Origin: a virus
Lineage: Duplodnaviria; Heunggongvirae; Uroviricota; Caudoviricetes
Virus record (IMG/VR): IMGVR_UViG_3300046786_000604
Location: 1-12,363 of that record
DNA length: 12,363 bases
Direction: 5' to 3' (one strand)
The position numbers were made by a program, and so were the translations under genes. The notes under the pieces were generated by a model that was given only the letters and a program-made list of their open reading frames with translations, had not been told where the DNA came from and searched no databases. Position 1 is the first letter of the stretch. Each line of letters starts with the position of its first letter. This document shows positions 1-12,363 of the stretch, in pieces.

Positions 1-267
1 TAATTCGATATTAAAAAATGCTATTCTTTCTTTTAATGCGTTTGCATTAGTTCCATTAAACGAAATAGCAATATCATTTCCACCAATATACCTGGAAATC
101 AATGTTGTTTTTCCAACTTGTCTTCCAGGATTAAACGCAACAGTTTGAAATGACCGTGCATAATCTACCTCAGTTAGATGTATATTTGGTCGTATGGATT
201 GAATTTCTCTATTAAATTCTACCATACTAAAAACAATGTTTTCTAATGTATTATGTAATTTTCTCAT
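1..267 (-). CDS. Partial (runs off left edge) hypothetical protein with Walker-A-like motif
   Basis: Not in the ORF track. Manual translation from ATG at 267 (SD GAGGTG upstream) is open for 89 codons: MRKLHNTLENIVFSMVEF...FNPGRQVGKTTLISRY...NIEL. GRQVGKT follows a hydrophobic strand, as in P-loop NTPases. Confidence 0.7.
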   Translation of the reverse strand, partial: MRKLHNTLENIVFSMVEFNREIQSIRPNIHLTEVDYARSFQTVAFNPGRQVGKTTLISRYIGGNDIAISFNGTNANALKERIAFFNIEL

Positions 268-268
268 A

Positions 269-499
269 TTATTCACCTCTTTCGAAAACTTCAATAGTAT
301 TTTCTAATGGCATGATAATTAATTCAGCTGGCGCTACTTTATCAGCAAATGTTTTTCTAATATCTTCCATATATTGCATTGCTTTGTGTGCTGGCATATT
401 CCCTACGCCAACTTTGATAACCATGATATGTCTATCAGTTAATTCTTGTTTATCCAAAATTTGGATTGAGTTTTCACTTAATTCTATTGTATGTGTCAT
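269..499 (-). CDS. 76-aa protein resembling the clip domain of T4-type portal proteins
   Basis: Tightly packed ORF with GGA SD. Motif VGVGNMPAHKAMQYMEDIRKTFADKV resembles T4 gp20 [26 protein letters not shown] (recalled). CDS confident, homology moderately so. Confidence 0.65.
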   Translation of the reverse strand: MTHTIELSENSIQILDKQELTDRHIMVIKVGVGNMPAHKAMQYMEDIRKTFADKVAPAELIIMPLENTIEVFERGE

Positions 500-502
500 A
501 AT

Positions 503-733
503 TTATTCCTTTATAAAAAGGGGAGTACGTCCATCGATAGTTTTATCTAACCTTAATCCTTCAGTCTTAGTTAACAGAGACTCTAACTGGTCAGAGTGGT
601 GTTTTAAAATTGAAAAACTAAATCTATCTGTTCCACGTTGATCTGGAGTTTGGTATTGTATAGAATAATATACAAATTCTTCATTGTTATCTAATTGGTC
701 TTTAAATACTTCTCTTAATTCTTCAATGTTCAT
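503..733 (-). CDS. Hypothetical protein, 76 aa
   Basis: ORF packed between neighbours with AAGGA SD upstream of the ATG; no recognisable motif. Confidence 0.75.
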   Translation of the reverse strand: MNIEELREVFKDQLDNNEEFVYYSIQYQTPDQRGTDRFSFSILKHHSDQLESLLTKTEGLRLDKTIDGRTPLFIKE

Positions 734-744
734 TTTTATATTCC

Positions 745-1707
745 TTAAAGCTTACAAGATTCGCAATCACTTTCATCATCTTCATTGATACCACTTGGTA
801 ATTCAACTTCATCTTCTGATTTTGAACCAGCTTTATCTATAAGTGAGTAATAAAAACCTTTTAATCCCCACTTATGTCCTAACATCAAATTCTTCGCAAT
901 TAATGTTCCTGGTACTTTTCTATCTGGAAAGTGTTTAGGCGAATAAAATGAATTTACACTGATTGATTGGTCAACATATGCTGCTAATACCGCTGCAGTT
1001 TTTAAATACCCGATGCAATCAGTTTGATCCCACATTAACTGATATTTGTTTTTCAGTTTATGGTATTCTGGAACAACTTGTGTTAATGATGCGGCTTTTG
1101 ATTCTTTAGTTTGAATTAACTGCATTGGCATTTCAATACCATTGGTGCTATTAATAACAACTGAACTAGATTCAACTGGAGCAATTGCCATTTGTGTAGC
1201 ATTACGAACACCGCTAACTTTCATTCTTTCACGTAATTGTTCCCAAGGCAGTTCTGGTGTAAAATCGGTTAATTCATTTACGCCTTCTGCACGTAGTTCC
1301 CACGGGAATATACCTTGACCATATCGGGTTTTTGCACTATCTAAACATGGTCCACGTTCTTCGGCTAGTTCAACACTAGATTCAGTTAAGTAAAATGCCT
1401 GATGTTCCATCCAGCTCTTAACTTCGGCTAACATTTCAGGCTCACCGTATTTCAACCCGCGTTTAGCTGCCCAGTACGCCAAGTTGGTAATACCAATCCC
1501 AATAGGACGAATTTCATCGTTTGATAGTTTAGAGTGGATTGACAAGAAGTCTTGATAATCTAAGATATTGTTTAGGCTACGATGAAGGATACGGCAAGCT
1601 CTTCTCATATCTTCTGGATTTCTGCAATTACCCCAATTGATTGAACCTAAGGTACACAGTGCTATTTTTGGAACTTTTCTAGTGCATTCTTTTTTAATTA
1701 TTCTCAT
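745..1707 (-). CDS. nrdA: Class Ia ribonucleotide reductase alpha subunit, C-terminal fragment (320 aa incl. 14-aa N-terminal tail)
   Basis: IALCTLGSINWG (E. coli C462-equivalent), RPIGIGITN, APVESSS/NSTNGIE, GFYYS (Y730/Y731 equivalents), C-terminal CESCKL cysteine pair. Start set at ATG 1707 (MRIIKKE) after GGAAATAGAA; the track start at 1737 is in frame but has no SD. Confidence 0.95.
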   Translation of the reverse strand: MRIIKKECTRKVPKIALCTLGSINWGNCRNPEDMRRACRILHRSLNNILDYQDFLSIHSKLSNDEIRPIGIGITNLAYWAAKRGLKYGEPEMLAEVKSWMEHQAFYLTESSVELAEERGPCLDSAKTRYGQGIFPWELRAEGVNELTDFTPELPWEQLRERMKVSGVRNATQMAIAPVESSSVVINSTNGIEMPMQLIQTKESKAASLTQVVPEYHKLKNKYQLMWDQTDCIGYLKTAAVLAAYVDQSISVNSFYSPKHFPDRKVPGTLIAKNLMLGHKWGLKGFYYSLIDKAGSKSEDEVELPSGINEDDESDCESCKL

Positions 1708-2401
1708 TTCTATTTCCATATAATTTACAATTATCAAAATGATATTGAGTCATTCTACTGATCCCACCTGTTTTATTACAATGTGGGCATGTTACTTTTT
1801 TCATCGGCTTGCCTTTTTTAGAATTAGACATATTGATATTATTTTTTAATCTTAATTCAGGCGATTGTTCGTGTTTAAGCCACTTTTTAAAATTTGATAT
1901 ACTTATTTCTTTTCTATCTATAATTCTACATACTGTTGGTTGTTTTCTTCCTTTAAGAGAAATACTAGTTTTAATGTTTGGAATACCTTTACGTGGACTA
2001 GGTTTTCCTTTATTATATGGTGATTTTCCTTTTCTAGCGATAGAGACCCCTAGGTTTGGAATACCTTTACGTGGACTAGGTTTTCCTTTATTGTGAGAAA
2101 TAAAACTTATCCCTAATGTTGTAAACTTACCGTCACCATTATGCATGTTATAACTTCGTATATCATTTTTGGCATCTAAAAGCGTTAAAAGCTCTGTTTC
2201 TAAATTAACCATATCGATAGGTTCACCAATTGCTAAAATCGTTCTCTCCCATTCATCATAATTTTTCTTAATCAATGGTTTTACAATTTTACTAGAACAT
2301 ATATAACCATCATGTGGGTGACAATTTTTTCTAGTGCGTGACCCTAAGTACCATCTTAGGGATACTTTATTCTTCCAAATATATACAAATGCTTGGCTCA
2401 T
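1694..2401 (-). CDS. GIY-YIG (Seg-like) homing endonuclease with NUMOD3-like repeats and C-terminal CxxC/H/C motif
   Basis: FVYIW-x8-WYLGS, conserved R, DGYICSS, E helix (NLETEL) and YN motif. Basic KGKPSPRKG repeats. C-terminal CPHC...HFDNC. Sits inside nrdA. Confidence 0.85.
   Translation of the reverse strand: MSQAFVYIWKNKVSLRWYLGSRTRKNCHPHDGYICSSKIVKPLIKKNYDEWERTILAIGEPIDMVNLETELLTLLDAKNDIRSYNMHNGDGKFTTLGISFISHNKGKPSPRKGIPNLGVSIARKGKSPYNKGKPSPRKGIPNIKTSISLKGRKQPTVCRIIDRKEISISNFKKWLKHEQSPELRLKNNINMSNSKKGKPMKKVTCPHCNKTGGISRMTQYHFDNCKLYGNRNENN
1976..2092. repeat. Perfect 39-bp direct repeat, 2 copies (1976-2014 and 2054-2092)
   Basis: gtttggaatacctttacgtggactaggttttcctttatt occurs twice, 78 bp (26 codons) apart; encodes NKGKPSPRKGIPN. 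Confidence 0.95.
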
Positions 2402-3927
2402 AATAATAAATCTGTAATATCATCATCTTCTGTCAATTCCCTAACTTTCTTCATATCACCGTTAGACAATAAAACTTTGTGTTGCCCTGGAATTAATACT
2501 TCAGTACCATCGTCTAAACTCAGTTTAAACTCTCCTTCATCATCTAATGATTTTAATGGAACTGTTGGCAAATTTATCTCTAAACATAAATTTGATTGAT
2601 ATATTGTGTGATGTTCTGGATCAAATGGTCCTTGCTTCATTACATTATCAATGAATACTAAGTAGATTCTACCGGTATCGGTTCTTTCTTTTAGAATACC
2701 GCCTTTGAATACTTCTTCAGCACTCATTGTTTTTTTACGTAAGTCTTTACGTTTTTCGTATTTTACGTAGAGTTCTTCAAATTTTGTGGTATTTTGATAG
2801 AATGCTTCGTATAAATCTGGTACTTCGTTCGGATCAAAGAAAGTAATGTTTCCTTTATCCTTAAAACGTCTCCAAAAGAATGCTGATAATACAACACCAT
2901 AATCCATATGGCGAACACGAGTTTCTTCAGTTCCTTGATTGTTTTTAAGTACAATCAGGTCATCGAATTGATAATGCCAAATTGGGTAAAATACTGTTGC
3001 CGATGCATTTCTAACACCACCTTGCGAGCACGAACGTAGATCACCAAACCATTTTTTAAGGAATGGAATGAATCCGGTATGCATAATTTCACCATTTCTA
3101 ATAGGTGAACCTAGTGGGCGCAATCTACCAACTTCTAAGCCTATGCCAGCACGTTTACTGGCATATTTTGCCATCATTTCGCCAGAAGCAAATATAGAGT
3201 CAAGATCGTCATCGCTCCGTATAAGGACGCAGCTAGAAAATTGTTTTGTTGGAGTTCCAAGCCCAGCAAGAACAGGAGTAGCAAGAGTGAATAGACCATC
3301 GGACGCAGCATTATAATATTCCTTTATGTATTTCATTCTAGCAGAATTTGGTTCTTCTTTATGAAAGACCGTAGCTGCAGCAACCATATATCTAACTTGT
3401 GGAGTTTCGTATACTTCTTTGGTAGCACGATTTCTTAATAGATATTTTTCTATTAACTGTTCGATTGCTGCATAAGAATATTGTTCGTCTTTATCATGGT
3501 CAATGAACGAGTCCATTTTATTCCATTCATCTTCTGAATACCAATCTAGAAGTTCTGGGGTATAAAGTCCTATTTCTATATTTTTCTTTACGATGTCATA
3601 AAGGTTTGGTGGTTGATATTGTCCATATACATCTTTACGAAGCATTGATAACCGTTGTTTACCTGCCACAAATTGATAATTTGTATGACCGATATCAGGA
3701 TTGGCTTCTATGTCAATAAGATTAACTATTGCACGTAATGTAATTTCATCGATTTCTTTGGTCGTAATGCCATCATAATAATGCGGTTGACTTTCGATTT
3801 CAATCATTGACTGGCTAACATCAGCGATACCGCTACAAACTTTAGCGATTTGATGCTGCCATTTTTCTAGGTTTAATGGTTCTTTAGTACCATTTCTTTT
3901 GATTACTGTTATTTTATTCATATCCAT
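2398..3927 (-). CDS. nrdA: Class Ia ribonucleotide reductase alpha subunit, N-terminal fragment with ATP cone (about 509 aa incl. 44-aa C-terminal tail)
   Basis: VIKRNGTKEPL ATP cone, ETPQ, LATPVLAGLGT, FSSCVL (C225-equivalent), SQGGVRNASA, QSNLCLEI (N437/C439/E441 equivalents at 2578-2592). Start probably 3927 or 3921 rather than 4020. The TGA stop overlaps the endonuclease ATG (ATGA). Confidence 0.95.
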   Translation of the reverse strand: MDMNKITVIKRNGTKEPLNLEKWQHQIAKVCSGIADVSQSMIEIESQPHYYDGITTKEIDEITLRAIVNLIDIEANPDIGHTNYQFVAGKQRLSMLRKDVYGQYQPPNLYDIVKKNIEIGLYTPELLDWYSEDEWNKMDSFIDHDKDEQYSYAAIEQLIEKYLLRNRATKEVYETPQVRYMVAAATVFHKEEPNSARMKYIKEYYNAASDGLFTLATPVLAGLGTPTKQFSSCVLIRSDDDLDSIFASGEMMAKYASKRAGIGLEVGRLRPLGSPIRNGEIMHTGFIPFLKKWFGDLRSCSQGGVRNASATVFYPIWHYQFDDLIVLKNNQGTEETRVRHMDYGVVLSAFFWRRFKDKGNITFFDPNEVPDLYEAFYQNTTKFEELYVKYEKRKDLRKKTMSAEEVFKGGILKERTDTGRIYLVFIDNVMKQGPFDPEHHTIYQSNLCLEINLPTVPLKSLDDEGEFKLSLDDGTEVLIPGQHKVLLSNGDMKKVRELTEDDDITDLLL

Positions 3928-3976
3928 ATGATGTGTACTCTCAATCCGTATTACTATATTAATTCTGTTTAGGTAG

Positions 3977-3984
3977 TATTTAGT
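3977..3984 (-). promoter_or_regulatory. Possible late-type promoter box ACTAAATA upstream of nrdA
   Basis: Same TAAATA core as in front of the structural genes, about 50 nt before the nrdA start; could be chance in AT-rich DNA. Confidence 0.35.
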
Positions 3985-4017
3985 GGGTTGGATTGATGTG
4001 TGAAAAATTTTGTAAGT

Positions 4018-4065
4018 CATTGAAATAGAACAGAATCTTATAAAAAGACGCTGTACTATTCAATG
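4018..4065 (-). other. Imperfect 48-nt stem-loop in the nrdA 5' leader
   Basis: cattgaaatag (4018-4028) pairs with ctattcaatg (4056-4065) with one bulge; inner pairings are acag/ctgt and tctt/aaga. Confidence 0.55.
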
Positions 4066-4075
4066 AATTATAGAT

Positions 4076-4104
4076 ATTATACACTACATAACAAGAAATG
4101 TCTA
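4076..4104 (-). promoter_or_regulatory. Sigma70-type promoter for the nrdA operon
   Basis: TAGACA (4104-4099), 17-bp spacer, TATAAT (4081-4076), in the intergenic gap. Confidence 0.75.
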
Positions 4105-4113
4105 GTGAAATTT

Positions 4114-5829
4114 TTAACTAATTGCTGTGTAGGTATAATGTAGATACCCAGCATCATTTGTAAGAAGGTTGGTATACGCAATGCTTAACGAATAGGGATC
4201 CTCACCATTATCAAGTACCCCACCATTGATATCTAAGAAAGACACTTGGAAATCTAGTAATAGTGAGTTATCAATCGTGCCTGTACAGTTATATTCATCA
4301 GTTAATTGAATATGTTTAGCATCAATATCTACTACTATTGATAAAACCCCAGCTCTAGTTTCGTTGTTTAAATTTTTATAATAATATTTGATATTATAGG
4401 TAATAGAACCATCTGGTACCCCATCCACTGAACCTGCTAATGGTAATCTAAATAAATCAGTACTATAAGTATTATATCCTAAAGAAACTCTGGTGGTTCC
4501 AAATGAACTATATTCACAATGACCACTAACTTCTGGAATATATGCATAGGTAAGTGATGGATGTGATGATATTGCGGTGCGGTCTGATTTAATATTGTTA
4601 ATAACATTTCCGTAATATCTAGAATAAATTTGTGGGAATTCTTGATTATTTACATTCCCAAAATTGTTTCCTACATTGTATAATTCTATATTAGAAACAT
4701 TATTACCTGTACCTAAATCTATGAATATGGCATTTTGTTGCACACTATAGAACTTGTAATTATTGATTATAGTATCTCTTGAACCAAATTGTTGACCAAT
4801 ATTTACACCATCTGAATTAAAACCTAACACAAACCCTTGCTTTACATTAGTGACATATCCTTCATCAAACAAATTATTTATAATATCATTATCTGAATAT
4901 ACTCCGTAGTTGAAACCTGAAATATATATATTTTTAAAAATATTACGTTCACATGTTACAAGTGAGGTAAAACCATATAATGCAATGCCTTTACTTAATT
5001 TGGTAATATCACCGACCCATCCTCCTTGTAGATTTAAATCTTCGAACGTACTATCCCTAACTGACTCTAATTGCAATGCAACTTGATCAATTGATGAAGT
5101 TATAATTGATAATCCTTTAAATAATATGTATCGTGGTTGATTTGTATATTGGACATCGTTGGAATCGTTTGTAAAGTTACCATCTAGATTTGTATCTATT
5201 AATCTACTACCCATCCCTGCTGGATTGCCAGGGGTAGATAAATCATTGACAAATCTAACTACTGGAGTGGATGATGTATGACTGATTATAGTTTTACTAG
5301 AACCTTCCCCTATGATCGTAGCGTAGCTTGGAATGAATAATGTCCCAGTAATTTTATATGTACCTGCTGGTATTTTTAATGTAATTCTTTTATATGAATT
5401 ATTATATGCTGTCCCTGCTGTATTCAAAAATAATTGATCAATTGCTCGTTGTAATGAGATAGTATCATCTACGATGCCGTCACCAATTACCCCAAAATCT
5501 TTTGTTGAAACATAATCATCTAAACGGTCTTGTACAGTACGATATACTGGATGATTAGAATCAATCCCAGTATGAATATTGGTATTATTGTCTTTATAAA
5601 CTCGTTGGAAAATATTAAGAAGATCTGGATTGTTATCCAAATCTTTATATGTTAATAGTTTTGTATTACCAACTGATGGAGCTCCTTCAGAAACTGAACC
5701 ATTTCCAATATATAACTCTTGACTATCAACACACCATGCTAATTCACCACTAGCTAATTGTGGAAGTCCTGTCCCTTCTAGTTTTTTACCACGTCTTTGT
5801 TGGATTCTTGAGATTTGTACAACTGCCAT
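4114..5829 (-). CDS. Virion structural protein (tail fibre/spike-like) with pectate-lyase-like beta-helix
   Basis: N-terminal QISRIQQRRG...LPQLASGELAW...QELYIGNG attachment-type segment, then VSTKDFGVIGDGIVDDTISLQRAID and IPAGTYKITGTL (Pectate_lyase_3-type start), then Asn/Gly-rich beta-helix rungs. GAGG SD. Confidence 0.75.
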   Translation of the reverse strand: MAVVQISRIQQRRGKKLEGTGLPQLASGELAWCVDSQELYIGNGSVSEGAPSVGNTKLLTYKDLDNNPDLLNIFQRVYKDNNTNIHTGIDSNHPVYRTVQDRLDDYVSTKDFGVIGDGIVDDTISLQRAIDQLFLNTAGTAYNNSYKRITLKIPAGTYKITGTLFIPSYATIIGEGSSKTIISHTSSTPVVRFVNDLSTPGNPAGMGSRLIDTNLDGNFTNDSNDVQYTNQPRYILFKGLSIITSSIDQVALQLESVRDSTFEDLNLQGGWVGDITKLSKGIALYGFTSLVTCERNIFKNIYISGFNYGVYSDNDIINNLFDEGYVTNVKQGFVLGFNSDGVNIGQQFGSRDTIINNYKFYSVQQNAIFIDLGTGNNVSNIELYNVGNNFGNVNNQEFPQIYSRYYGNVINNIKSDRTAISSHPSLTYAYIPEVSGHCEYSSFGTTRVSLGYNTYSTDLFRLPLAGSVDGVPDGSITYNIKYYYKNLNNETRAGVLSIVVDIDAKHIQLTDEYNCTGTIDNSLLLDFQVSFLDINGGVLDNGEDPYSLSIAYTNLLTNDAGYLHYTYTAIS

Positions 5830-5847
5830 AAAATATCCTCTTTGATA

Positions 5848-5855
5848 TATTTATA
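5848..5855 (-). promoter_or_regulatory. T4-type late promoter box TATAAATA
   Basis: Exact match 18 nt upstream of the ATG at 5829, just after a terminator. Confidence 0.7.
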
Positions 5856-5868
5856 ACATTTTGAACAT

Positions 5869-5893
5869 AAAAAAGCCCTAGTCTTCTAGGGCT
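5869..5893 (-). terminator. Rho-independent terminator
   Basis: 8-bp stem AGCCCTAG/CTAGGGCT, 4-nt loop, U-tract, 10 nt after the stop at 5904. Confidence 0.9.
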
Positions 5894-5903
5894 ATGTGAA
5901 AAA

Positions 5904-6464
5904 TTAAGCTACTGTGAAAGAAGTTGCATCAGTTACGGTTGTTCCAGATAAATCGAACCCGATGGTAAATTCACCACCTGTGACTGATGTACTTGCTGCT
6001 TGATTAAGTGTTAAACTAGTCCCAGCTGATACTGATGAAACAGTAGTTCCTGGTAATATACCAGGCCCAGTTACTGTTGCCCCAACCATTGTTGCTAGTG
6101 CTGAAGATGTTGCTAACGTAACAGTTCCATTAGTAGTACCGGTAATCGTTCTAACACCAGACACTCTGCGAATACGAGTTCTTAGTTCAGCTGCATCATT
6201 AATTGCTTTATCCATTACCACATGGATTTTACCTGAATTATCAGCTGGTGACCAGTATGCTAGTGGACTGATTTCTTTGACGATTGCTTCTAATACGCCA
6301 TCTGCCAATTGAGTTGATGAATCAATATAACTATCTTCATTTTGTAAATCAATTGCAGTTCCACCTGCAATTTTTACTGTAATTAAATATAAATTAGAAT
6401 TTACATTGTATAATGTTCCAACTTTTGTAGCTGAACCATTAATTCTTGATACCATTAAAGTCAT
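5904..6464 (-). CDS. Putative virion structural/decoration protein, 186 aa
   Basis: Thr/Gly/Ala/Ser-rich, GGAG SD, own TAAATA box and terminator. The C-terminal third has a GATVTGPGILPGTTVSSV-type beta module. Confidence 0.65.
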   Translation of the reverse strand: MTLMVSRINGSATKVGTLYNVNSNLYLITVKIAGGTAIDLQNEDSYIDSSTQLADGVLEAIVKEISPLAYWSPADNSGKIHVVMDKAINDAAELRTRIRRVSGVRTITGTTNGTVTLATSSALATMVGATVTGPGILPGTTVSSVSAGTSLTLNQAASTSVTGGEFTIGFDLSGTTVTDATSFTVA

Positions 6465-6485
6465 TTTAAAAATCTCCGTTTTAAG

Positions 6486-6493
6486 TATTTATC
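6486..6493 (-). promoter_or_regulatory. Late promoter box GATAAATA
   Basis: TAAATA core overlapping the exonuclease stop codon, 21 nt upstream of the ATG at 6464. Confidence 0.6.
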
Positions 6494-7208
6494 AGTTATT
6501 CTTGTAATATAATTCCACACGATCCCACCATTTATTCTCCCAATGACTAAAATTTTCTGGTTTTAGAATAAATTCTTGATATTGTGGAATACCCCATATA
6601 CCAGGGGATGTTTCCGGTGGTTTTACACACATTAAAATTACACCTTTCCGTACATTGGTACCATGTACCTTATTATGGGCTAGTGCATATGCAGTTAATT
6701 GAAGATAATAATCCTCAATCCATTCTTCTTTTTTAGGTTTATTGGATTGTTTATAGTCAAATATTGCTTCATCATTTGTATGAATACCCAATGCATCAGC
6801 AGTTCCTGCATATAGCCCTGGATAATATAATCCAACCTCAGACCCCCATATTTCATTTATATTTAAAAATCCATTAGATATAATAGTATCAGCCATTAGA
6901 TGGCTTTGTTTACTATATGGATTTGTACCAGCTGGAGTCAATTGGCCATTTGCAATAAAGTCTTCTAAAAACTTATGCATTCGTGTTCCACGGCCAGCAG
7001 CTTCAGTTGTTATTTCTTGTGCTTTTGTTTCGCCGACCGACTTCCTCCATTTCATAATGGATTCCATCTTTTCTTTTGATTTTGTCTTGTCAAGAATTGT
7101 TGTTACTGAGGGAACCTTAGAACCATCTGGGCAAAGATATAATCGTTTGCCCTGTTCTTCGTTTCTATTGATTGGTGTGTAATTATAGCGTTCTGTTAGT
7201 AAAGTCAT
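6492..7208 (-). CDS. PD-(D/E)xK superfamily exonuclease (MGME1/phage exonuclease-like)
   Basis: PSVTTIL, RGTRMH-x2-E, SEVGLY, YAGTAD, IFDYKQS, DYYLQLTAYA motifs. No four-Cys Fe-S set. Confidence 0.85.
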   Translation of the reverse strand: MTLLTERYNYTPINRNEEQGKRLYLCPDGSKVPSVTTILDKTKSKEKMESIMKWRKSVGETKAQEITTEAAGRGTRMHKFLEDFIANGQLTPAGTNPYSKQSHLMADTIISNGFLNINEIWGSEVGLYYPGLYAGTADALGIHTNDEAIFDYKQSNKPKKEEWIEDYYLQLTAYALAHNKVHGTNVRKGVILMCVKPPETSPGIWGIPQYQEFILKPENFSHWENKWWDRVELYYKNN

Positions 7209-7213
7209 AAGGT

Positions 7214-7242
7214 ATTATATAACATTTACTAACAGAGGTCAA
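7214..7242 (-). promoter_or_regulatory. Sigma70-type promoter, probably giving a leaderless exonuclease mRNA
   Basis: TTGACC (7242-7237), 17-bp spacer, TATAAT (7219-7214), then only 5 nt (ACCTT) before the ATG at 7208; no SD. Confidence 0.85.
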
Positions 7243-7245
7243 TTA

Positions 7246-7605
7246 CTATTTTGATTTTAAAGCATGTTTAGCCATACTAGATACTTGTGAATGTGTTGGG
7301 TCTACTTCTTGATTGTTAACCATATCAGGTTGTTGACTATCAGGCACTAATCTAATACCATTATCATCAAAACTATCTCTATTACCATTTACAATGTTGT
7401 GTAATGGACCACTTGGATCTTCTGAATCGTATCGTAAAGCAAATGAATTGTAATCTATACTTGGACCACCAAAGTTTGATAATGCTGTATTAATAGTATC
7501 CCAATCTACTGGTGTTTCTTGTTTCTCTGGATGGAAATTTAAATCCGCTTGCAGTAATTTTAAAACTTTAACAAGCGGATCATCTGCTTCAGCAGCTTCA
7601 ATTAC
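7246..7605 (-). CDS. Unannotated 119-codon ORF lacking a start codon, in the -1 frame of the 7602-8564 gene; probable frameshift extension
   Basis: Manual translation VIEAAEADDPLVKVLKLLQADLNFHPE...VSSMAKHALKSK* fills the 390-bp gap almost exactly. No ATG/GTG/TTG occurs between the upstream in-frame TAG and codon 87. Confidence 0.8.
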   Translation of the reverse strand, partial: VIEAAEADDPLVKVLKLLQADLNFHPEKQETPVDWDTINTALSNFGGPSIDYNSFALRYDSEDPSGPLHNIVNGNRDSFDDNGIRLVPDSQQPDMVNNQEVDPTHSQVSSMAKHALKSK

Positions 7606-8564
7606 TTTTTTTTTGAGCTTAAAAGCATTCCTAGTCTACGACTATAATCAATACTTTCGCGTTTCATTCTACCAGCTTCTGTGGCTGGGGGCATTTCACC
7701 ACCTTCTTCACCACCAATATCTCCACCTAATTCTGGAGTACCGGTTTCACCACCCATTGGAGAACCACCCATTGGAGAACCGCCCATTGGAGAACCGCCC
7801 ATTGGAGCACCCATTGTTTCACCTTGCTCACCTGACACAATCGCCAAACCATTTGAAAGACCTTCACGACCAGCAACCAATGCTGTGTAGATCCCTTCTA
7901 ATGCTTGGGATACAACTTGATTAAATTGCCCTGATACCTCACTACCTTGTTCTGCTCTGATTGAGTCTAACAATTCTAATAATTGATCTGCTTTCATCGC
8001 TGCAGTATCTTCAATCCAGTTAGTGATCTTACCAACCATATCTTTTGTAGCTAAGATATTTTCTGCTTTTTGTTCTTCACCTTCTAATAGCATCCAACTT
8101 GCCTGTGATTCAGACAAATCGTATCTTAATGTCAATTCAGCAGCTAATTCTTGTCTATCAGATTCACCCAATTGAATTCGTTTAATTGCATTTTTAATCC
8201 AACTTTCTGGTACTGACATTTTTTCTGCGCGGTGACGAATTGCCGATACCATGGCCTCATTGCTTATTTGCTTACGAGGTTTTTCAGAATTTTCTGCCAA
8301 TTCAGCAGCTTCTTCTCTTTCGAAGATTGCTTGATTAACTACGTCTAATAAAGCACGAGTTTTTTGATATTTTGAATTTTCTAAAATATTATCATAACTT
8401 TCGTTCATTTCTAGTTGGCTTAATTCAGTGCGTAATTTATTACGTACATCTTCTAGTTGAACGTCTGAAAACTGTTCTAATTTTAATTTGTAACCGAAAG
8501 TCTTAGCCATGCTTTCGTTTAGTTTTTTACTTGTTACTTTTTGTGATAAATCTTTAATTTGCAT
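7602..8564 (-). CDS. Acidic, helical, putative prohead core/scaffold-like protein, 320 aa
   Basis: Glu-rich helical sequence with many [LIM]-x-E motifs and a Gly/Pro/Met low-complexity tail. TATAAATA box and AAGGA SD upstream. Function is inferred. Confidence 0.55.
   Translation of the reverse strand: MQIKDLSQKVTSKKLNESMAKTFGYKLKLEQFSDVQLEDVRNKLRTELSQLEMNESYDNILENSKYQKTRALLDVVNQAIFEREEAAELAENSEKPRKQISNEAMVSAIRHRAEKMSVPESWIKNAIKRIQLGESDRQELAAELTLRYDLSESQASWMLLEGEEQKAENILATKDMVGKITNWIEDTAAMKADQLLELLDSIRAEQGSEVSGQFNQVVSQALEGIYTALVAGREGLSNGLAIVSGEQGETMGAPMGGSPMGGSPMGGSPMGGETGTPELGGDIGGEEGGEMPPATEAGRMKRESIDYSRRLGMLLSSKKK
7605..7614 (-). other. Slippery site A9-G (TCA AAA AAA AAG TAA)
   Basis: Contains A_AAA_AAA and A_AAA_AAG heptamers directly before the zero-frame stop. 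Confidence 0.7.
7750..7809. repeat. Tandem repeat, 4 x 15 bp (cc[a/g]cccattggag[a/c]a)
   Basis: Units start at 7750, 7765, 7780 and 7795; they encode (A/S)PMGG x4. Confidence 0.95.
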
Positions 8565-8596
8565 GTTAGTGTTCCTTATAACATTTCTCTATCATG

Positions 8597-8604
8597 TATT
8601 TATA
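8597..8604 (-). promoter_or_regulatory. T4-type late promoter box TATAAATA
   Basis: Exact match overlapping the stop at 8600, 32 nt upstream of the ATG at 8564. Confidence 0.7.
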
Positions 8605-9034
8605 CAAAAGTATGTTTAAACATTCTAGAAATAATTTTTTTATAGTATTCAGATTGGTTGGTACTTTCCTCCAATTTTGTTAATACTATGAGGTATTTTT
8701 CATCTGGTAATTTATCAATCATGTTTTTAAATATTAAAGTATCACTATAATTAAACCAATAGCTATTATCTAATTCTTTTATTTCATGGCATCTATTATA
8801 TTGCCTATGGTTATAAAATTTAGCGGCCATTAACGCACAACTTTTCAAATAGTATTGATTGATCAAATCTTTATTTAAAATGTTAAAAACACCCCAATTA
8901 CCATTAGGCAATTTTTTAACTAAAAAATCTTTATAACCAAGTGCCCCATTAGGTAGAATTTTTATTGGTAAATTTGCTTGAAGTTCTTGGTCAAAATAAT
9001 TTGCTAATTCTTTAATTACTGTCTTTGTTTTCAT
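8600..9034 (-). CDS. Hypothetical protein, 144 aa
   Basis: ORF overlapping the upstream gene, GGTGG SD; no recognised motif. Confidence 0.8.
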   Translation of the reverse strand: MKTKTVIKELANYFDQELQANLPIKILPNGALGYKDFLVKKLPNGNWGVFNILNKDLINQYYLKSCALMAAKFYNHRQYNRCHEIKELDNSYWFNYSDTLIFKNMIDKLPDEKYLIVLTKLEESTNQSEYYKKIISRMFKHTFV

Positions 9035-9224
9035 TAGCCACCACCGAGGGGTTGTTAAATCCTATCTTAGAAACCAGATTCTTACGAATCATCGATTGAA
9101 TTCTAAATTGTTCATGTTCACTAAGACTACTTAATTTTACTGGTGATTGTAATTTTTCTAATAACTTGGACTCCTCATTAGTCATCCAAATTTCCATAGT
9201 AGTAAATAATTCTTTTAGTTTCAT
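9012..9224 (-). CDS. Hypothetical protein, 70 aa
   Basis: ATGA overlap with the upstream gene stop at 9221-9224. Confidence 0.8.
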   Translation of the reverse strand: MKLKELFTTMEIWMTNEESKLLEKLQSPVKLSSLSEHEQFRIQSMIRKNLVSKIGFNNPSVVANENKDSN

Positions 9225-9712
9225 CTTAGGTTAGCTATTGTAAGCCATCTATTCAATTCATCATTTTCAGGTAATACATCACGGGAATTGCCTCCAGTTG
9301 AACTTATATTACTACCTCTGGCTGCTCTTTCGTATGCTCTATCAACTATTTTATTGATTAAGTTATCTGTTCGATCTCCACCAACATCGTTATTTCCATT
9401 GTCAACTAGGTCTGCTTGTTCTTCGTCACTGGTTTCACCCATTGTAGTAGATAATTGTGAAGATAAATCAGATGGTAATTCAACTTCTGCACCAACCTTT
9501 GGTCCAACTTGTTGTTGATCAGTTGAAGAAGTTTGAGTCATTGCATTTGGGTCTAATGAAAGCTTGTTAGGATCATTCGGGTCCATTTGATGAATCGCTG
9601 TCATTTTTTCTGGAGGAAGTGTTAATTTAACACCATCTTGGGCGGTTAGTTCAATTCCTTGAGGACTTGATTGTGTTACCTTGTAATTTTCCATTATTTC
9701 TTTAATTTTCAT
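9221..9712 (-). CDS. Acidic hypothetical protein, possible head-internal protein, 163 aa
   Basis: AGGA SD, MKIKEIME start, acidic low-complexity middle, C-terminal helix ELNRWLTIANLR. Confidence 0.7.
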   Translation of the reverse strand: MKIKEIMENYKVTQSSPQGIELTAQDGVKLTLPPEKMTAIHQMDPNDPNKLSLDPNAMTQTSSTDQQQVGPKVGAEVELPSDLSSQLSTTMGETSDEEQADLVDNGNNDVGGDRTDNLINKIVDRAYERAARGSNISSTGGNSRDVLPENDELNRWLTIANLR

Positions 9713-9723
9713 TCTTGATCCTA

Positions 9724-9963
9724 TTAGAATTTCATAATGATAGTAACAATAGTTGAAAGCATACCAGCTACAATAGTTGCAGTAGCACCAATAATAACTT
9801 TACTCATACTTGCTTTACTTTCTTCAATTTTTCCAGAAAGTGTTTCTACTTTTGTTTCAATTGTATGTAATCTGGTTTCTAGATTTTGGTATCTCAATGC
9901 ACATAACTCTACGTGACTTTCTAGGTTTTCTTTTTCAATATCGGTTGGTTTCAACGTTGTCAT
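9724..9963 (-). CDS. Coiled-coil protein with C-terminal transmembrane helix (XhlA-like topology), 79 aa
   Basis: Heptad pattern LETRLHTIETKVETLSGKIEE followed by hydrophobic VIIGATATIVAGMLSTIVTII. GGAG SD. Confidence 0.75.
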   Translation of the reverse strand: MTTLKPTDIEKENLESHVELCALRYQNLETRLHTIETKVETLSGKIEESKASMSKVIIGATATIVAGMLSTIVTIIMKF

Positions 9964-10001
9964 TATTATCTCCAGGTATCCTGTTCAAGGGGTGTATGTT
10001 A

Positions 10002-10009
10002 TATTTATT
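10002..10009 (-). promoter_or_regulatory. Late promoter box AATAAATA
   Basis: TAAATA core overlapping the stop at 10005, 38 nt upstream of the ATG at 9963. Confidence 0.55.
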
Positions 10010-10409
10010 GCTTTTTATGGAAAACAATATTCTTATTTTTACCTTCTGTAACAAATACCGCGAAATTTTGCTCTAATAATTCATCAAGACCATCAATATA
10101 TGGTACTAACTCGAAATCTTCTTTTAAGAACCCAACCGGATCGTTATCATTAAAGTATACATCTTCCCTTTCAGTTCCAAAATCAAACCGCCATACTCTA
10201 ATTATCTCATTGGTATCAAATCCTATCAGACTACCTTTTACTTCAGTCATAATAGGATTTTCAAAATATGATAAATTAGCTCTTATACCTAATGATTGCA
10301 GAACGGTATTGAAATTCTGTTCTTTCCATCGAGCAGCTTCTTTACCTAATTCAGCTCTATATTGTCCGGTATGTGTAATATCTACGAGTGTATATAATTT
10401 ATAATTCAT
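10005..10409 (-). CDS. Hypothetical late protein, 134 aa
   Basis: Start moved to ATG 10409 (MNYKLYTLVDIT) because the ATG at 10427 abuts the terminator U-tract, upstream of the TAAATA box. Confidence 0.75.
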   Translation of the reverse strand: MNYKLYTLVDITHTGQYRAELGKEAARWKEQNFNTVLQSLGIRANLSYFENPIMTEVKGSLIGFDTNEIIRVWRFDFGTEREDVYFNDNDPVGFLKEDFELVPYIDGLDELLEQNFAVFVTEGKNKNIVFHKKQ

Positions 10410-10413
10410 AACG

Positions 10414-10421
10414 TATTTAAT
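10414..10421 (-). promoter_or_regulatory. Late promoter box ATTAAATA, probable leaderless transcript
   Basis: 4 nt upstream of ATG 10409, just downstream of a terminator; no SD. Confidence 0.6.
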
Positions 10422-10427
10422 AGACAT

Positions 10428-10461
10428 AAAAAAAAGGAGTTACATTTCTGTAACTCCTTTT
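10428..10461 (-). terminator. Rho-independent terminator
   Basis: 13-bp perfect stem AAAAGGAGTTACA/TGTAACTCCTTTT, GAAA tetraloop, U8 run. Confidence 0.9.
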
Positions 10462-10484
10462 AATTACTTAATGGTAATTAGTAA

Positions 10485-11009
10485 TTAAACTAATGAACCA
10501 ATTGACGCACCAACGAAGTTGTTTGCACCAGCTGCAACATCAATTGCAGTAACTGCAATAGTACCATTGTAAACGAAACCAGCACTACCAACAGGTGTTT
10601 TGTTTCCTAAACGACCTGATAATGCATCAGTAATAGCTGATTCTAAATCGGTCCAAGTTTTGTCTTGAACATTTGCGTTTGAACCAGTACCGCTATCATT
10701 GGCAGTGTCATACGCGACAACTGCAACGAAATCAGTAGCAGTTGGTTGACCGATTGCATAAATTTCTGCAACTGTTTGGATTGCACGAACTGCAGCTGAA
10801 TAGTAGCTATCGCTATCAGTATATGCACCAGTATATGCACCCGATGTTGCACCAGTAACAACATATGCTTGTTTTGTTAAGTCGATATCGCTATCGCCAC
10901 CTGTACCAGCGTTGATGTTGATAATACGTAATTGACGTGTGCCAAAGTTTGTGCTTGGGCTAGTTTTTAAATAGTTAGTGGTAACTGTAGTACCGATTAA
11001 TGATGGCAT
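10485..11009 (-). CDS. Putative virion structural/decoration protein, 174 aa
   Basis: Thr/Ala/Gly-rich, AGGAG SD, own TAAATA box and terminator. 12-bp tandem duplication at 10818-10841 (GAYT x2). Confidence 0.65.
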   Translation of the reverse strand: MPSLIGTTVTTNYLKTSPSTNFGTRQLRIININAGTGGDSDIDLTKQAYVVTGATSGAYTGAYTDSDSYYSAAVRAIQTVAEIYAIGQPTATDFVAVVAYDTANDSGTGSNANVQDKTWTDLESAITDALSGRLGNKTPVGSAGFVYNGTIAVTAIDVAAGANNFVGASIGSLV

Positions 11010-11061
11010 AATATTTTCTCCTATATGCGTTTCAACTCACTACTCTGTGAGCTTGTAATAT

Positions 11062-11069
11062 TATTTAGT
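11062..11069 (-). promoter_or_regulatory. Late promoter box ACTAAATA
   Basis: Intergenic, 52 nt upstream of ATG 11009, followed by a small CTCAC/GTGAG hairpin. Confidence 0.55.
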
Positions 11070-11090
11070 GTTTTTTTAGAAAATGGCTTG

Positions 11091-11351
11091 TTAAGTCTTG
11101 TTTTCTTTACTTTCTTGAATTTTCTTAATACCTCGTTTGAATTTAGAGCCATCTCCAGCTTTAATGCTATTGATAAATCGTCTTTCTAATTCACATGCAG
11201 TTTCTTCATCGTAGGTTTCTCTGATGGATTCCAATAAATTAATTGCACTTTGAATGATGTTAGAACCACGACTTTCGATAATTAAATCGCTATCCCGGTT
11301 CATCCCAATGTTGCTTAATTCTTGTAAAATGCTTCTAGTACTCTTACGCAT
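11091..11351 (-). CDS. Helical hypothetical late protein, 86 aa
   Basis: Start reassigned to ATG 11351 (MRKSTRSILQE) with AGGGA SD and a TATAAATA box; the longer track start overlaps the divergent promoter. Confidence 0.8.
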   Translation of the reverse strand: MRKSTRSILQELSNIGMNRDSDLIIESRGSNIIQSAINLLESIRETYDEETACELERRFINSIKAGDGSKFKRGIKKIQESKENKT

Positions 11352-11370
11352 AGTATTATTCCCTATACTG

Positions 11371-11378
11371 TATTTATA
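11371..11378 (-). promoter_or_regulatory. T4-type late promoter box TATAAATA
   Basis: Exact match 19 nt upstream of ATG 11351. Confidence 0.7.
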
Positions 11379-11396
11379 GTAATATGAAAAATGTGC

Positions 11397-11424
11397 TTGA
11401 TTTTTAAAGTTTCTATGGTATAAT
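11397..11424 (+). promoter_or_regulatory. Sigma70-type promoter with extended -10
   Basis: TTGATT (11397-11402), 16-bp spacer, TG-G-TATAAT (11416-11424); AGGAG SD at 11451-11455. Confidence 0.8.
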
Positions 11425-11461
11425 TTACTTTCACAACAACAGACATACACAGGAGAATATT

Positions 11462-11719
11462 ATGTCAACACAACAAAGGGAAGTACTTAAAACTCAACCA
11501 CAAGGTAAAACAGGCTATGACATCAGATCTGATATCTTAATGATGGCTAAAGATCTAGCAATAAAAGAATTTGAGTCGGAATTTAGAATTTATGAATTAT
11601 TTCATATGCTAGAAAACCGAGAAGTATTTAGTGAATCACCTGTTAAGCCAGTGTTTCCAACAATCGATAAAGTTCTTGAGATTGCTAACAGAATGAATGA
11701 TTTTGTTGGTAAGAAATAA
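11462..11719 (+). CDS. Small helical hypothetical protein, 85 aa; the only supported plus-strand gene
   Basis: Own promoter, strong SD and terminator. Confidence 0.9.
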   Translation: MSTQQREVLKTQPQGKTGYDIRSDILMMAKDLAIKEFESEFRIYELFHMLENREVFSESPVKPVFPTIDKVLEIANRMNDFVGKK

Positions 11720-11721
11720 CT

Positions 11722-11748
11722 AAAAAGGCCCTTCGGGGCCTTTCTTTT
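11722..11748. terminator. Bidirectional rho-independent terminator
   Basis: AAAGGCCC-TTCG-GGGCCTTT with a C(UUCG)G tetraloop, flanked by an A run on the left and a T run on the right, between convergent genes. Confidence 0.92.
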
Positions 11749-12148
11749 ATTCTACTGATTCTTGCTGAAATAGTTCAGGATGCATCTTACCCCATTTACG
11801 CATAATTATACCAGCCATGTAATTTGCCTCATTTTCATGCGGACTACCATCTTTTCCACTATCATTGTTTAATTCATTATTCAAATCTTGCCGATAGTGG
11901 ACTAATTCATGTGCTAATGTTCTACAACAATCCATGATATGACGATTCTTGATAGTTAAGTTAATCTTATGACCACCATAACCACCAAAAGAACGATATT
12001 CTACACTATGGGAGTTATCTTTTTGAAGGTTGATGTTTGGTAAACTATCTAATTGCAATTCTTTTTTGGCAAACTTAATGAAGGCATGAAGAATATCTTC
12101 TGCTTTATCTCGTTTTAATCCTTCTGATAGTATTTCTCGTATTTTCAT
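11747..12148 (-). CDS. Zincin-like (HExxH) metallopeptidase, ImmA/IrrE-like, 133 aa
   Basis: RTLAHELVH (HELVH at 11897-11911) and downstream ENEANYMAG third-ligand helix. Start reassigned to ATG 12148 (MKIREILSE). Confidence 0.75.
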   Translation of the reverse strand: MKIREILSEGLKRDKAEDILHAFIKFAKKELQLDSLPNINLQKDNSHSVEYRSFGGYGGHKINLTIKNRHIMDCCRTLAHELVHYRQDLNNELNNDSGKDGSPHENEANYMAGIIMRKWGKMHPELFQQESVE

Positions 12149-12153
12149 AGTAG

Positions 12154-12161
12154 TATTTATC
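12154..12161 (-). promoter_or_regulatory. Late promoter box GATAAATA, probable leaderless transcript
   Basis: 5 nt upstream of ATG 12148; no SD. Confidence 0.65.
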
Positions 12162-12165
12162 TTCA

Positions 12166-12363
12166 TCAACTCCAACAAACATAATTGGGTAATTTTCTAT
12201 ATGTATCGTTTGTTGCCGTAAAGACCTCATTTTGTATAGATTTATTAGGTGATTGGTTATTAAAATTTTTAATAGTAGGGATTGATGAATCATTAAGACT
12301 TGAATTTGTCAACCAATAATTTACAGAAGTTAATGTGGTATCAACAATAGATGCATTAACTTT
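12166..12363 (-). CDS. C-terminal part of a gene entering from the right edge
   Basis: Manual translation is open for 65 codons (KVNASIVDTT...YRKLPNYVCWS*), ending just before the TAAATA box. Confidence 0.55.
   Translation of the reverse strand, partial: KVNASIVDTTLTSVNYWLTNSSLNDSSIPTIKNFNNQSPNKSIQNEVFTATNDTYRKLPNYVCWS

Follow-up and report, generated by a model that had tools for sequence, protein, structure and literature searches.

A conserved run of nine adenines as a probable -1 recoding site in uncultured giant phages

Introduction

Recoding at A runs as such is already known. Nine consecutive A or T residues is a length that many bacterial genomes select against, and the slipped product amounts to about 50% for the A9 run of Thermus dnaX and to 25–30% for Shigella spa13 (PMC1088944; PMC5009743). 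For ribosomal slippage, the heptamer A_AAA_AAC is a proven frameshift site in a cluster of insertion sequence (IS) elements (PMC4066793). Here we analyse a C-A9-G run at the end of a gene for a protein of 320 amino acids (aa), gene A, in a 12,363-nucleotide (nt) stretch of viral DNA, together with the -1 reading frame, B, that stays open beyond the run. The stretch, hereafter the window, comprises positions 1 to 12,363 of the uncultured IMG/VR virus record IMGVR_UViG_3300046786_000604 (77.1 kb in total, CheckV completeness 20%). Judged by the literature and phage records that could be searched, this instance is new.

Results and Discussion

A slippery run between two reading frames

The elements that make up the junction are the following:

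7602–8564, minus strand: gene A (P0001), 320 aa
7605–7616, minus strand: slippery run TCA AAA AAA AAG, with A9 at 7606–7614 (T9 on the plus strand) and G at 7605
7602–7604, minus strand: 0-frame stop codon TAA directly 3' of the run, terminating the 320-aa form
7246–7605, minus strand: -1 open reading frame (ORF) B, 119 codons (7249–7605) plus TAG (7246–7248)

A first reading of the sequence alone had claimed that gene A ends with TCA AAA AAA AAG TAA, and that a hidden -1 ORF of 119 codons fills the apparent gap up to a point 3 nt before the next promoter. Both statements were verified in the sequence, the -1 frame being open from stop to stop over 7246–7635. We propose, with a probability of about 0.88, that the C-A9-G run is a programmed -1 recoding site and that a trans-frame A-B protein is made. 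The majority of transcripts or ribosomes would then give the 320-aa A, halted at TAA, and a set fraction would enter the -1 frame to yield a 439-aa A-B fusion (...SSKKK-VIEAAE...); one extra A in the mRNA would equal a -1 shift in effect. For the two forms of 320 and about 439 aa, as suggested by the sequence-only reading, strong comparative support comes from a conserved run, a -1 frame under selection and the lack of a start or promoter for B.

To compare relatives, 80 related viral contigs were fetched, representing 57 distinct sequences of the window's clade with 51–98% identity in A. Another 17 distinct A9-type sequences were obtained from three sister clades, which gives 74 sequences from four clades. 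Gene A ends with [TC]CA AAA AAA AA[G/A/C] followed by TAA or TAG in all 57 relatives from the window's clade. In every A9-type sequence, those of the sister clades included, the -1 frame stays open for 105–124 codons beyond the run. The +1 frame shuts after 1–5 codons in the relatives of the window's clade. Because the same layout is found throughout the 80 related contigs, a chance origin of run and -1 ORF is excluded.

Of the 57 sequences, 48 have A9 and nine have A10; in the sister clades, the run is A9 in 16/17 and A10 in a single case (L147). The A10 alleles are G-to-A substitutions and not insertions, such that the frame is kept. With the tenth base being G in 44, A in 9 and C in 4 sequences (n=57), the last codon is AAG, AAA or AAC, respectively, and an in-phase heptamer A_AAA_AAG is present. 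The 0-frame stop (TAA 56/57, TAG 1/57) follows directly after the run in all 57 sequences; in one of the sister clades it stands one codon further on (AAG GCT TAA). Among 1434–1596 pairs that share the respective amino acid, codon identity at TCA, AAA and AAA is 1.00, as compared to 0.23–0.91 at all other tested columns; elsewhere in these genes, Lys is encoded by AAA in 72% and Ser by TCA in 34% of cases. Shortening to A6–A8 (e.g. A6G or A7G) was seen in none of the 74 A9-type sequences. The complete codon identity argues for a constraint at the nucleotide level, and this constraint spans three bases more than a slippery heptamer needs.

Long A/T runs appear depleted in the 77-kb record: there are two of at least nine (about 5.8 expected) and three of eight (10.9 expected), the expected counts being derived from a first-order Markov model and the sample being small. 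The only other nine-A/T run of the record (G000:C1:52709–52717, outside the window) lies directly after a start codon. It reads ATG AAA AAA AAA TTC... and encodes MKKKFYMLIGIPGSGKST, the beginning of a P-loop kinase-like protein with a second Met six codons on.

The -1 frame encodes a protein

Pairwise differences between B sequences are concentrated at third codon positions (2663, versus 1521 for the first and 988 for the second position). In closely related pairs, synonymous outnumber non-synonymous differences by 11:0 (L074/L075) and 16:4 (L033/L035). This pattern indicates that B is under purifying selection. The B products can be aligned from their first residues ([VIL]-x-E-x-x-[DE]-P-L...), and a profile search with B retrieved 443 representative proteins. 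An AlphaFold2 model built from 51 sequences shows a compact alpha/beta domain whose C-terminal helix is basic; means of the predicted local distance difference test (pLDDT) over blocks of ten residues are 77–94 for residues 11–90. Third-position bias, AlphaFold2 fold and profile representatives together establish that B is a real protein. Its predicted topology, H-S-H-H-S-S, is winged-helix-like, and winged-helix domains were the best matches in fold comparison, weak as they are (best Z 4.5, template modelling (TM) scores 0.3–0.45). No family match to B was found in Pfam or PHROGs, and a sequence-profile search against the PDB yielded noise only (E 0.03).

These data also bear on the possibility that the junction is an artefact or the result of decay: a homopolymer error might split what is really one gene of 439 aa, or the gene might have broken recently. 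Some sequencing platforms are indeed error-prone at homopolymers. Yet the layout is the same in 74 distinct sequences, which come from many independent metagenomes and go down to about 30% identity in B, and both frames are under purifying selection. Moreover, the best 120 of more than 1100 gene A homologs have called lengths of 184–346 aa, mostly 300–346 aa, the shorter ones being partial. Sequencing error and pseudogene were therefore rejected, on grounds of conservation and of selection in both frames, and we regard the chance of either as negligible.

Is B expressed on its own?

Two promoter elements frame the unit:

8597–8604, minus strand: T4-type late promoter box TATAAATA, 32 nt 5' of the gene A ATG
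7214–7242, minus strand: sigma-70-like promoter TTGACC (7237–7242)-N17-TATAAT (7214–7219) of the next gene, which encodes a PD-(D/E)XK exonuclease

The sigma-70-like promoter begins 3 nt beyond the TAG of B and marks the end of the recoded unit. An exact TATAAATA box is found 34–41 nt 5' of the gene A ATG in 49/57 relatives, the remaining eight having a one-mismatch [GC]ATAAATA; judged by this sequence motif, late expression would fit gene A well. A motif scan detected no late promoter box between 150 nt before the junction and the end of the -1 ORF, which argues that B can be expressed only from the late mRNA of gene A.

The absence of a usable start codon in B, as noted from the sequence alone, was confirmed: the earliest ATG, GTG or TTG in the -1 frame of the window is a GTG at codon 86. 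In relatives, the first canonical start of the -1 ORF lies anywhere from codon 1 to codon 107, without a Shine-Dalgarno sequence. One may nevertheless ask if a separate B could arise without any frameshift, by non-AUG initiation or re-initiation near the stop, for example at ATT (7600–7602). Stop-start overlaps of the same geometry (ATGA or TAATG) exist in distant relatives, and three members of the window's clade (L025, L065 and L068) have ATG as the second -1 codon (TAATG). However, the codon at the position of the ATT is AAT, ATA, ACT or AGT in most relatives and is thus not start-capable there, canonical starts are scattered as described, and the frozen A9 would be left unexplained. The ATT start, which the sequence-only reading had named as a case against recoding, was rejected since the codon is not conserved as a start, and initiation of a separate B near the stop is very improbable.

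A perfect 12-nt inverted repeat (7192–7203/7225–7236, TCTGTTAGTAAA / TTTACTAACAGA) flanks the -10 box of the next promoter and the start codon of the exonuclease (7208). At this position, the arms found in relatives differ in sequence and are again complementary. The repeat may be an operator, or a hairpin in the 5'-untranslated region that hides the exonuclease start.

Which machine slips?

If recoding takes place, either RNA polymerase or the ribosome may slip. We give about an even chance to polymerase slippage on A9 being the essential, conserved mechanism. In support of it, a run of at least nine is common to all four recoding clades and is never relaxed, and its tenth base is variable. 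Bacterial polymerases slip on runs of this length (PMC1088944; PMC5009743). The lack of downstream structure in the sister clades and, on a small sample, the low count of long A/T runs in the 77-kb record point in the same direction. T4-type late transcription relies on the host core polymerase.

Several findings weigh against the polymerase and concern, for the most part, RNA structure downstream of the run:

7584–7595, minus strand: small hairpin CTGC-TGAA-GCAG, 9 nt past the last sense codon
7542–7581, minus strand: main hairpin, 23 nt past the last sense codon, whose 11-bp outer stem GATCCGCTTGT/GCAAGCGGATT encloses a 4-bp inner one

Both had been pointed out in the first reading, as a small CTGC/GCAG hairpin and a longer stem, and both are contained in the minimum-energy fold of the 71 nt from the run onward (-20.5 kcal/mol, z -3.66), a stability that none of 200 dinucleotide shuffles attained. 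For the 60 nt after the stop, the mean z in the window's clade is -3.14, with 72% of sequences below -2; values elsewhere in the gene are about -0.3, so that this stretch stands out as the one structural outlier. In 29 of the other 32 segments along the gene the values lie between +0.28 and -1.22; the exceptions are those at -60 (-1.55) and +60 (-1.65) and at the 3' end of B (-2.22 and -1.77). An equivalent hairpin over the Asp-Pro-Leu codons is seen in most members of the clade. In its stem arms, codon choice is atypical (Pro CCC in 22/57, Arg AGG in 21/27) and covariation is partial, 65% of cells being paired as compared to 30–51% in slid controls. The downstream hairpin is thus selected in the window's clade, and it points to a ribosomal component, since an RNA hairpin downstream cannot affect the polymerase at the run. 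The G at position 10 in 44/57 sequences and the abutting stop are likewise compatible with ribosomal slippage. Furthermore, A9 begins exactly with the last base of the codon that precedes KKK, whereby tRNAs in the E, P and A sites could re-pair in the -1 frame. Finally, the polymerases of AT-rich hosts may resist slippage on a 9-mer (PMC1088944).

The main competitor is accordingly that -1 frameshifting is mainly ribosomal, on A_AAA_AAG or on A_AAA_AAA_AAG with its two in-phase heptamers, aided by the neighbouring stop of the 0 frame (a "shifty stop" with P-site slip) and by the downstream hairpin, with the polymerase playing a minor part. We consider this possible, though less probable than polymerase slippage as the essential mechanism. 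The in-phase A_AAA_AAG is among the most efficient -1 motifs of E. coli, A_AAA_AAC is the proven IS heptamer cited above, and the phase of the run would allow three tRNA-Lys to re-pair. In the sister-clade sequence L119 (~410–470), A9-G and TAA are followed by a 7-bp stem that starts only 5 nt past the last sense codon (z -5.6), its GC-rich core, GAGGCC/GGCCTC, being flanked by a closing G-U pair. On the other hand, a heptamer needs seven bases, yet at least nine are kept in 74/74 sequences. The hairpin of the window's clade starts 0–41 nt from the last sense codon (commonest 8–14, with a 12-nt shift where codons are inserted; 23 in the window), versus 5–9 nt for classical stimulators. RNAalifold over 52 junctions gave no consensus structure, because the hairpin register varies among sub-clades. 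The sister A9 clades are without downstream structure (mean z -0.35, versus -0.12 in controls that have an ATG start for B). As these clades are unstructured and one of them has a displaced stop, the A run is the sole universal element.

Two upstream candidates were dismissed. RNA structure upstream of the run was rejected as a stimulator (mean z -0.64). The AGGA at 7629–7632, 16 nt from the A_AAA_AAG heptamer (10–14 nt in the dnaX type, where such an element is optional), had been listed as a possible stimulator; it is part of Leu-Gly codons, the Gly codon of relatives is mostly GGC, synonymous identity is 0.43–0.50, and the element is not conserved.

Taken together, polymerase and ribosome slippage may well both contribute in the window's clade, where ribosomal -1 slippage on A_AAA_AAG beside the stop probably raises the yield. 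The explanations other than these two add up to a small share in our weighting.

Relatives with a separate B gene

In distant phages, B either stands alone, as a protein of about 115 aa that has a Met of its own and the conserved leader M-[RK]-[LIF]-x-E-[FVI], or forms the N-terminal domain of proteins of 261–771 aa. The gene order in distant relatives matches that of the window: A, B, a gene of about 226 aa and an Mtd_N/pectate-lyase tail-spike-like gene. A set of 80 further loci gave 60 distinct classifiable junctions, of which 43 have an own ATG for B, mostly as ATGA, and 17 show C-A9-[G/A] recoding. In L088, for example, A ends with ...KRESIEHRLRLTKLLVGR-TGA and the ATG of B overlaps the stop as ATGA, in the -1 geometry that the window shows too. 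The own-ATG distant lineages have no A run.

Two changes suffice to explain the A9/ATG label on a B tree, as compared to a mean of 35 after shuffling, and the ATG-type L107 (...CCA AAA TGA) is nested within an A9 clade. Both observations argue that the two layouts are interchangeable in evolution; judged from this tree, they have been interconverted at least twice. It had been stated beforehand that homologs starting the downstream ORF from their own ATG would speak against recoding. Such homologs occur in the more distant lineages alone. They strengthen the case for recoding, since an ATGA overlap stands there in place of the A run.

An in-frame fused A-B protein was not found among the best 150 of the 443 profile hits, nor did a search for longer proteins reveal a fused form, which is weak evidence. 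With no fused A-B at hand, a short plus a long form, or a set ratio of the two, appear to be wanted. The lack of fused forms also touches on a switch at the DNA level, in which replication slippage would create a phase-variation-like mix of A9 (split) and A10 (fused) phages. Nine-base homopolymers mutate fast, and the genome appears depleted in long A/T runs. But in roughly 100 contigs (74 distinct A9-type sequences) there is no fused consensus allele, the fused protein is missing from both searches, and the A10 variants are frame-keeping substitutions. We hold such a switch to be even less probable than initiation of a separate B.

Some relatives carry B as the N-terminus of a long Ala/Gly-rich protein (P0192, 771 aa; P0163, 463 aa; P0162, 134 aa). 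The long Ala/Gly-rich protein ends with ...KESMEYMRLSIEYNKIKS, resembling the C-terminal ...KRESIDYSRRLG helix of gene A, which suggests domain shuffling or circular permutation between A and B.

The largest ATG-type clade (L103–L168) has a short coiled-coil protein of about 95–147 aa (...KQIQDQIKQKQ..LQKQLAxIK) in the place of gene A. In this clade, B begins with a near-invariant ATGAGATTTTTTGAATT (MRFFEF) that includes a T6 run.

Source genome and phage type

Three relatives are near-complete or complete (CheckV 96–100%): two are genomes of 372 kb that have terminal repeats, and the third is a linear contig of 356 kb. PF03420 (Peptidase_S77, the gp21-type prohead protease) was found above the Pfam cut-off in all three, and PF07068 (gp23 capsid protein) was detected in the relative G001. 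By these two proteins in complete relatives, the giant phage is classified as T4-like. Outside the window, a 165-aa ORF (G000:C1:30904–31032) matches positions 1–44 only of the gp23 family (E 9e-13); its product is a small protein, a piece of which resembles the gp23 N-terminus.

Searches of 50,697 GenBank phage records by megablast, blastn and tblastn gave no match to A, B, P0192, the stand-alone B or the junction region. By this measure, the A/B family appears to be one of uncultured phages.

Gene A and a possible role in the capsid

The gene A product is acidic. Its AlphaFold2 model, of low overall confidence (predicted TM score 0.30), is all-helical and comprises two long helices and a C-terminal one, besides a Gly/Pro linker (residues 247–293) that is disordered. 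This C-terminal helix is conserved (...RMKRESIDYSRRLGMLLSSKKK), and the aligned homologs end with ...RMKRESVEYSRKLGMLLSSKKK. The model matched uncharacterized phage proteins in BFVD. Pfam yielded nothing for gene A and a PDB sequence-profile search was without match; the single match in PHROGs was that of residues 157–248 to PHROG 14154, "virion structural protein" (E 7e-9). Across relatives, the N-terminus reads M-Q-[ILV]-x-[DE]-L and is followed by an invariant L15-N16-E17; it resembles the stand-alone B leader M-[RK]-[LIF]-x-E, the motif being a short one.

The T4 protease gp21 cuts after L/I-x-E, T4 core and internal proteins (IPs) bear a short N-terminal capsid-targeting sequence (CTS), and T4 heads take up cargo that has been joined to the IPIII C-terminus (PMC9026906). 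At the junction of the window, the first codons of B are as follows:

7597–7605, minus strand: junction codons GTA ATT GAA (V-I-E), a [VIL]-x-E motif like those that gp21, the prohead protease of T4, cleaves

Within the first seven residues of B, [LIVFM]-x-E occurs in 74/74 A9-type sequences and, at residues 3–5, in 41/43 ATG-type sequences, as compared to a background of 0.2% per position. With this hydrophobic-x-Glu at the start of B, the fusion junction encodes a candidate protease site. Cleavage at the junction [VIL]-x-E would yield the same mature B as does the separate gene of relatives with its M-[RK]-[LIF]-x-E start.

In the first reading, A had been labelled a putative head core protein. 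This is plausible in view of the late promoter, the predicted all-helical fold, the gp21 protease of relatives and the L/I-x-E motifs. We tentatively go one step further and suggest that A might be a T4-like prohead-core or internal protein, that the fusion might bring B into the prohead and that a gp21-type cut might free it there, a proposal that is less likely true than false. Somewhat more doubtful still is a natural "piggy-back" loading, in which the start-less B would ride as a fixed fraction of A and be released by the protease at the frame junction. In this lineage, B would then have lost both a start and a targeting peptide of its own, and lineages would alternate between such loading and a separate, translationally coupled B that carries the M-[RK]-[LIF]-x-E leader.

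Some points tell against a role in the capsid. What suggests targeting and cleavage is a resemblance of motifs, and no sequence homology was found between A or B and the T4 IPs, gp22, gp67, gp68 or T4 CTS proteins. Gene A, like all genes near the junction on the minus strand, is situated among DNA-metabolism genes and not in a head module.

Significance

Within the searchable literature and phage records, what is new is that several things come together: the gene family itself, its occurrence in T4-like giant phages, evolutionary toggling between the A9 layout and ATGA coupling, and a candidate protease site where A and B meet. The A9 run would amount to a deeply conserved recoding signal across a large group of uncultured freshwater phages of a type, T4-like, that is not known for frameshifting. 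Since standard gene calling overlooks the 119-codon ORF or cuts it short, the B domain is absent from the annotations of this group. The family offers a natural comparison between ATGA-coupled re-initiation and A9 slippage for the same downstream protein, and the conserved A9 together with a clade-specific hairpin provides a clean system to separate polymerase from ribosome slippage. If the junction is a protease site, the locus would show recoding that sets the dose of a cargo inside the capsid.

Comparison with known systems

Thermus thermophilus dnaX (tau/gamma) and the 9A IS elements resemble the present gene in having two products and, near the end of a coding region, a sense-strand A9 that is conserved beyond the needs of the protein. 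In Thermus dnaX, the slipped mRNA gives the shorter product, whereas here it would give the longer one, with an extra folded domain; the orfA-orfB fusions of IS elements and Shigella spa13 are closer to this arrangement. Unlike Thermus dnaX and the 9A IS elements, the present gene is a predicted phage late gene, known here from its sequence.

With E. coli dnaX and the IS3, IS911 and IS1 cassettes, the locus shares the in-phase heptamer, an orfA-orfB-type fusion, an orfB without a start and, in the window's clade, a downstream stem-loop. It differs in lacking a conserved Shine-Dalgarno-like element, in the long and variable spacing of the hairpin, in having 9–10 A residues and not six, and in a 0-frame stop that abuts the site.

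As in the lambda G/GT tail chaperones and the T7 10A/10B capsid proteins, a late gene would give a major short and a minor, C-terminally extended form, but gene family and role are different ones, the protein being no tail chaperone and no capsid shell protein. According to Vladimirov et al. 2022, as cited in PMC10885494, frameshifting is not employed by T4-like phages, their tail chaperones included. The likeness to T4 IPIII/CTS targeting consists in a predicted late gene, the motif M-x-[ILF]-x-[ED]-[LFIV] on A and on stand-alone B, the hydrophobic-x-Glu at the junction and the gp21-type protease of relatives. The IPIII fusions of T4 were engineered, whereas the fusion proposed here would be a natural one, brought about by recoding.

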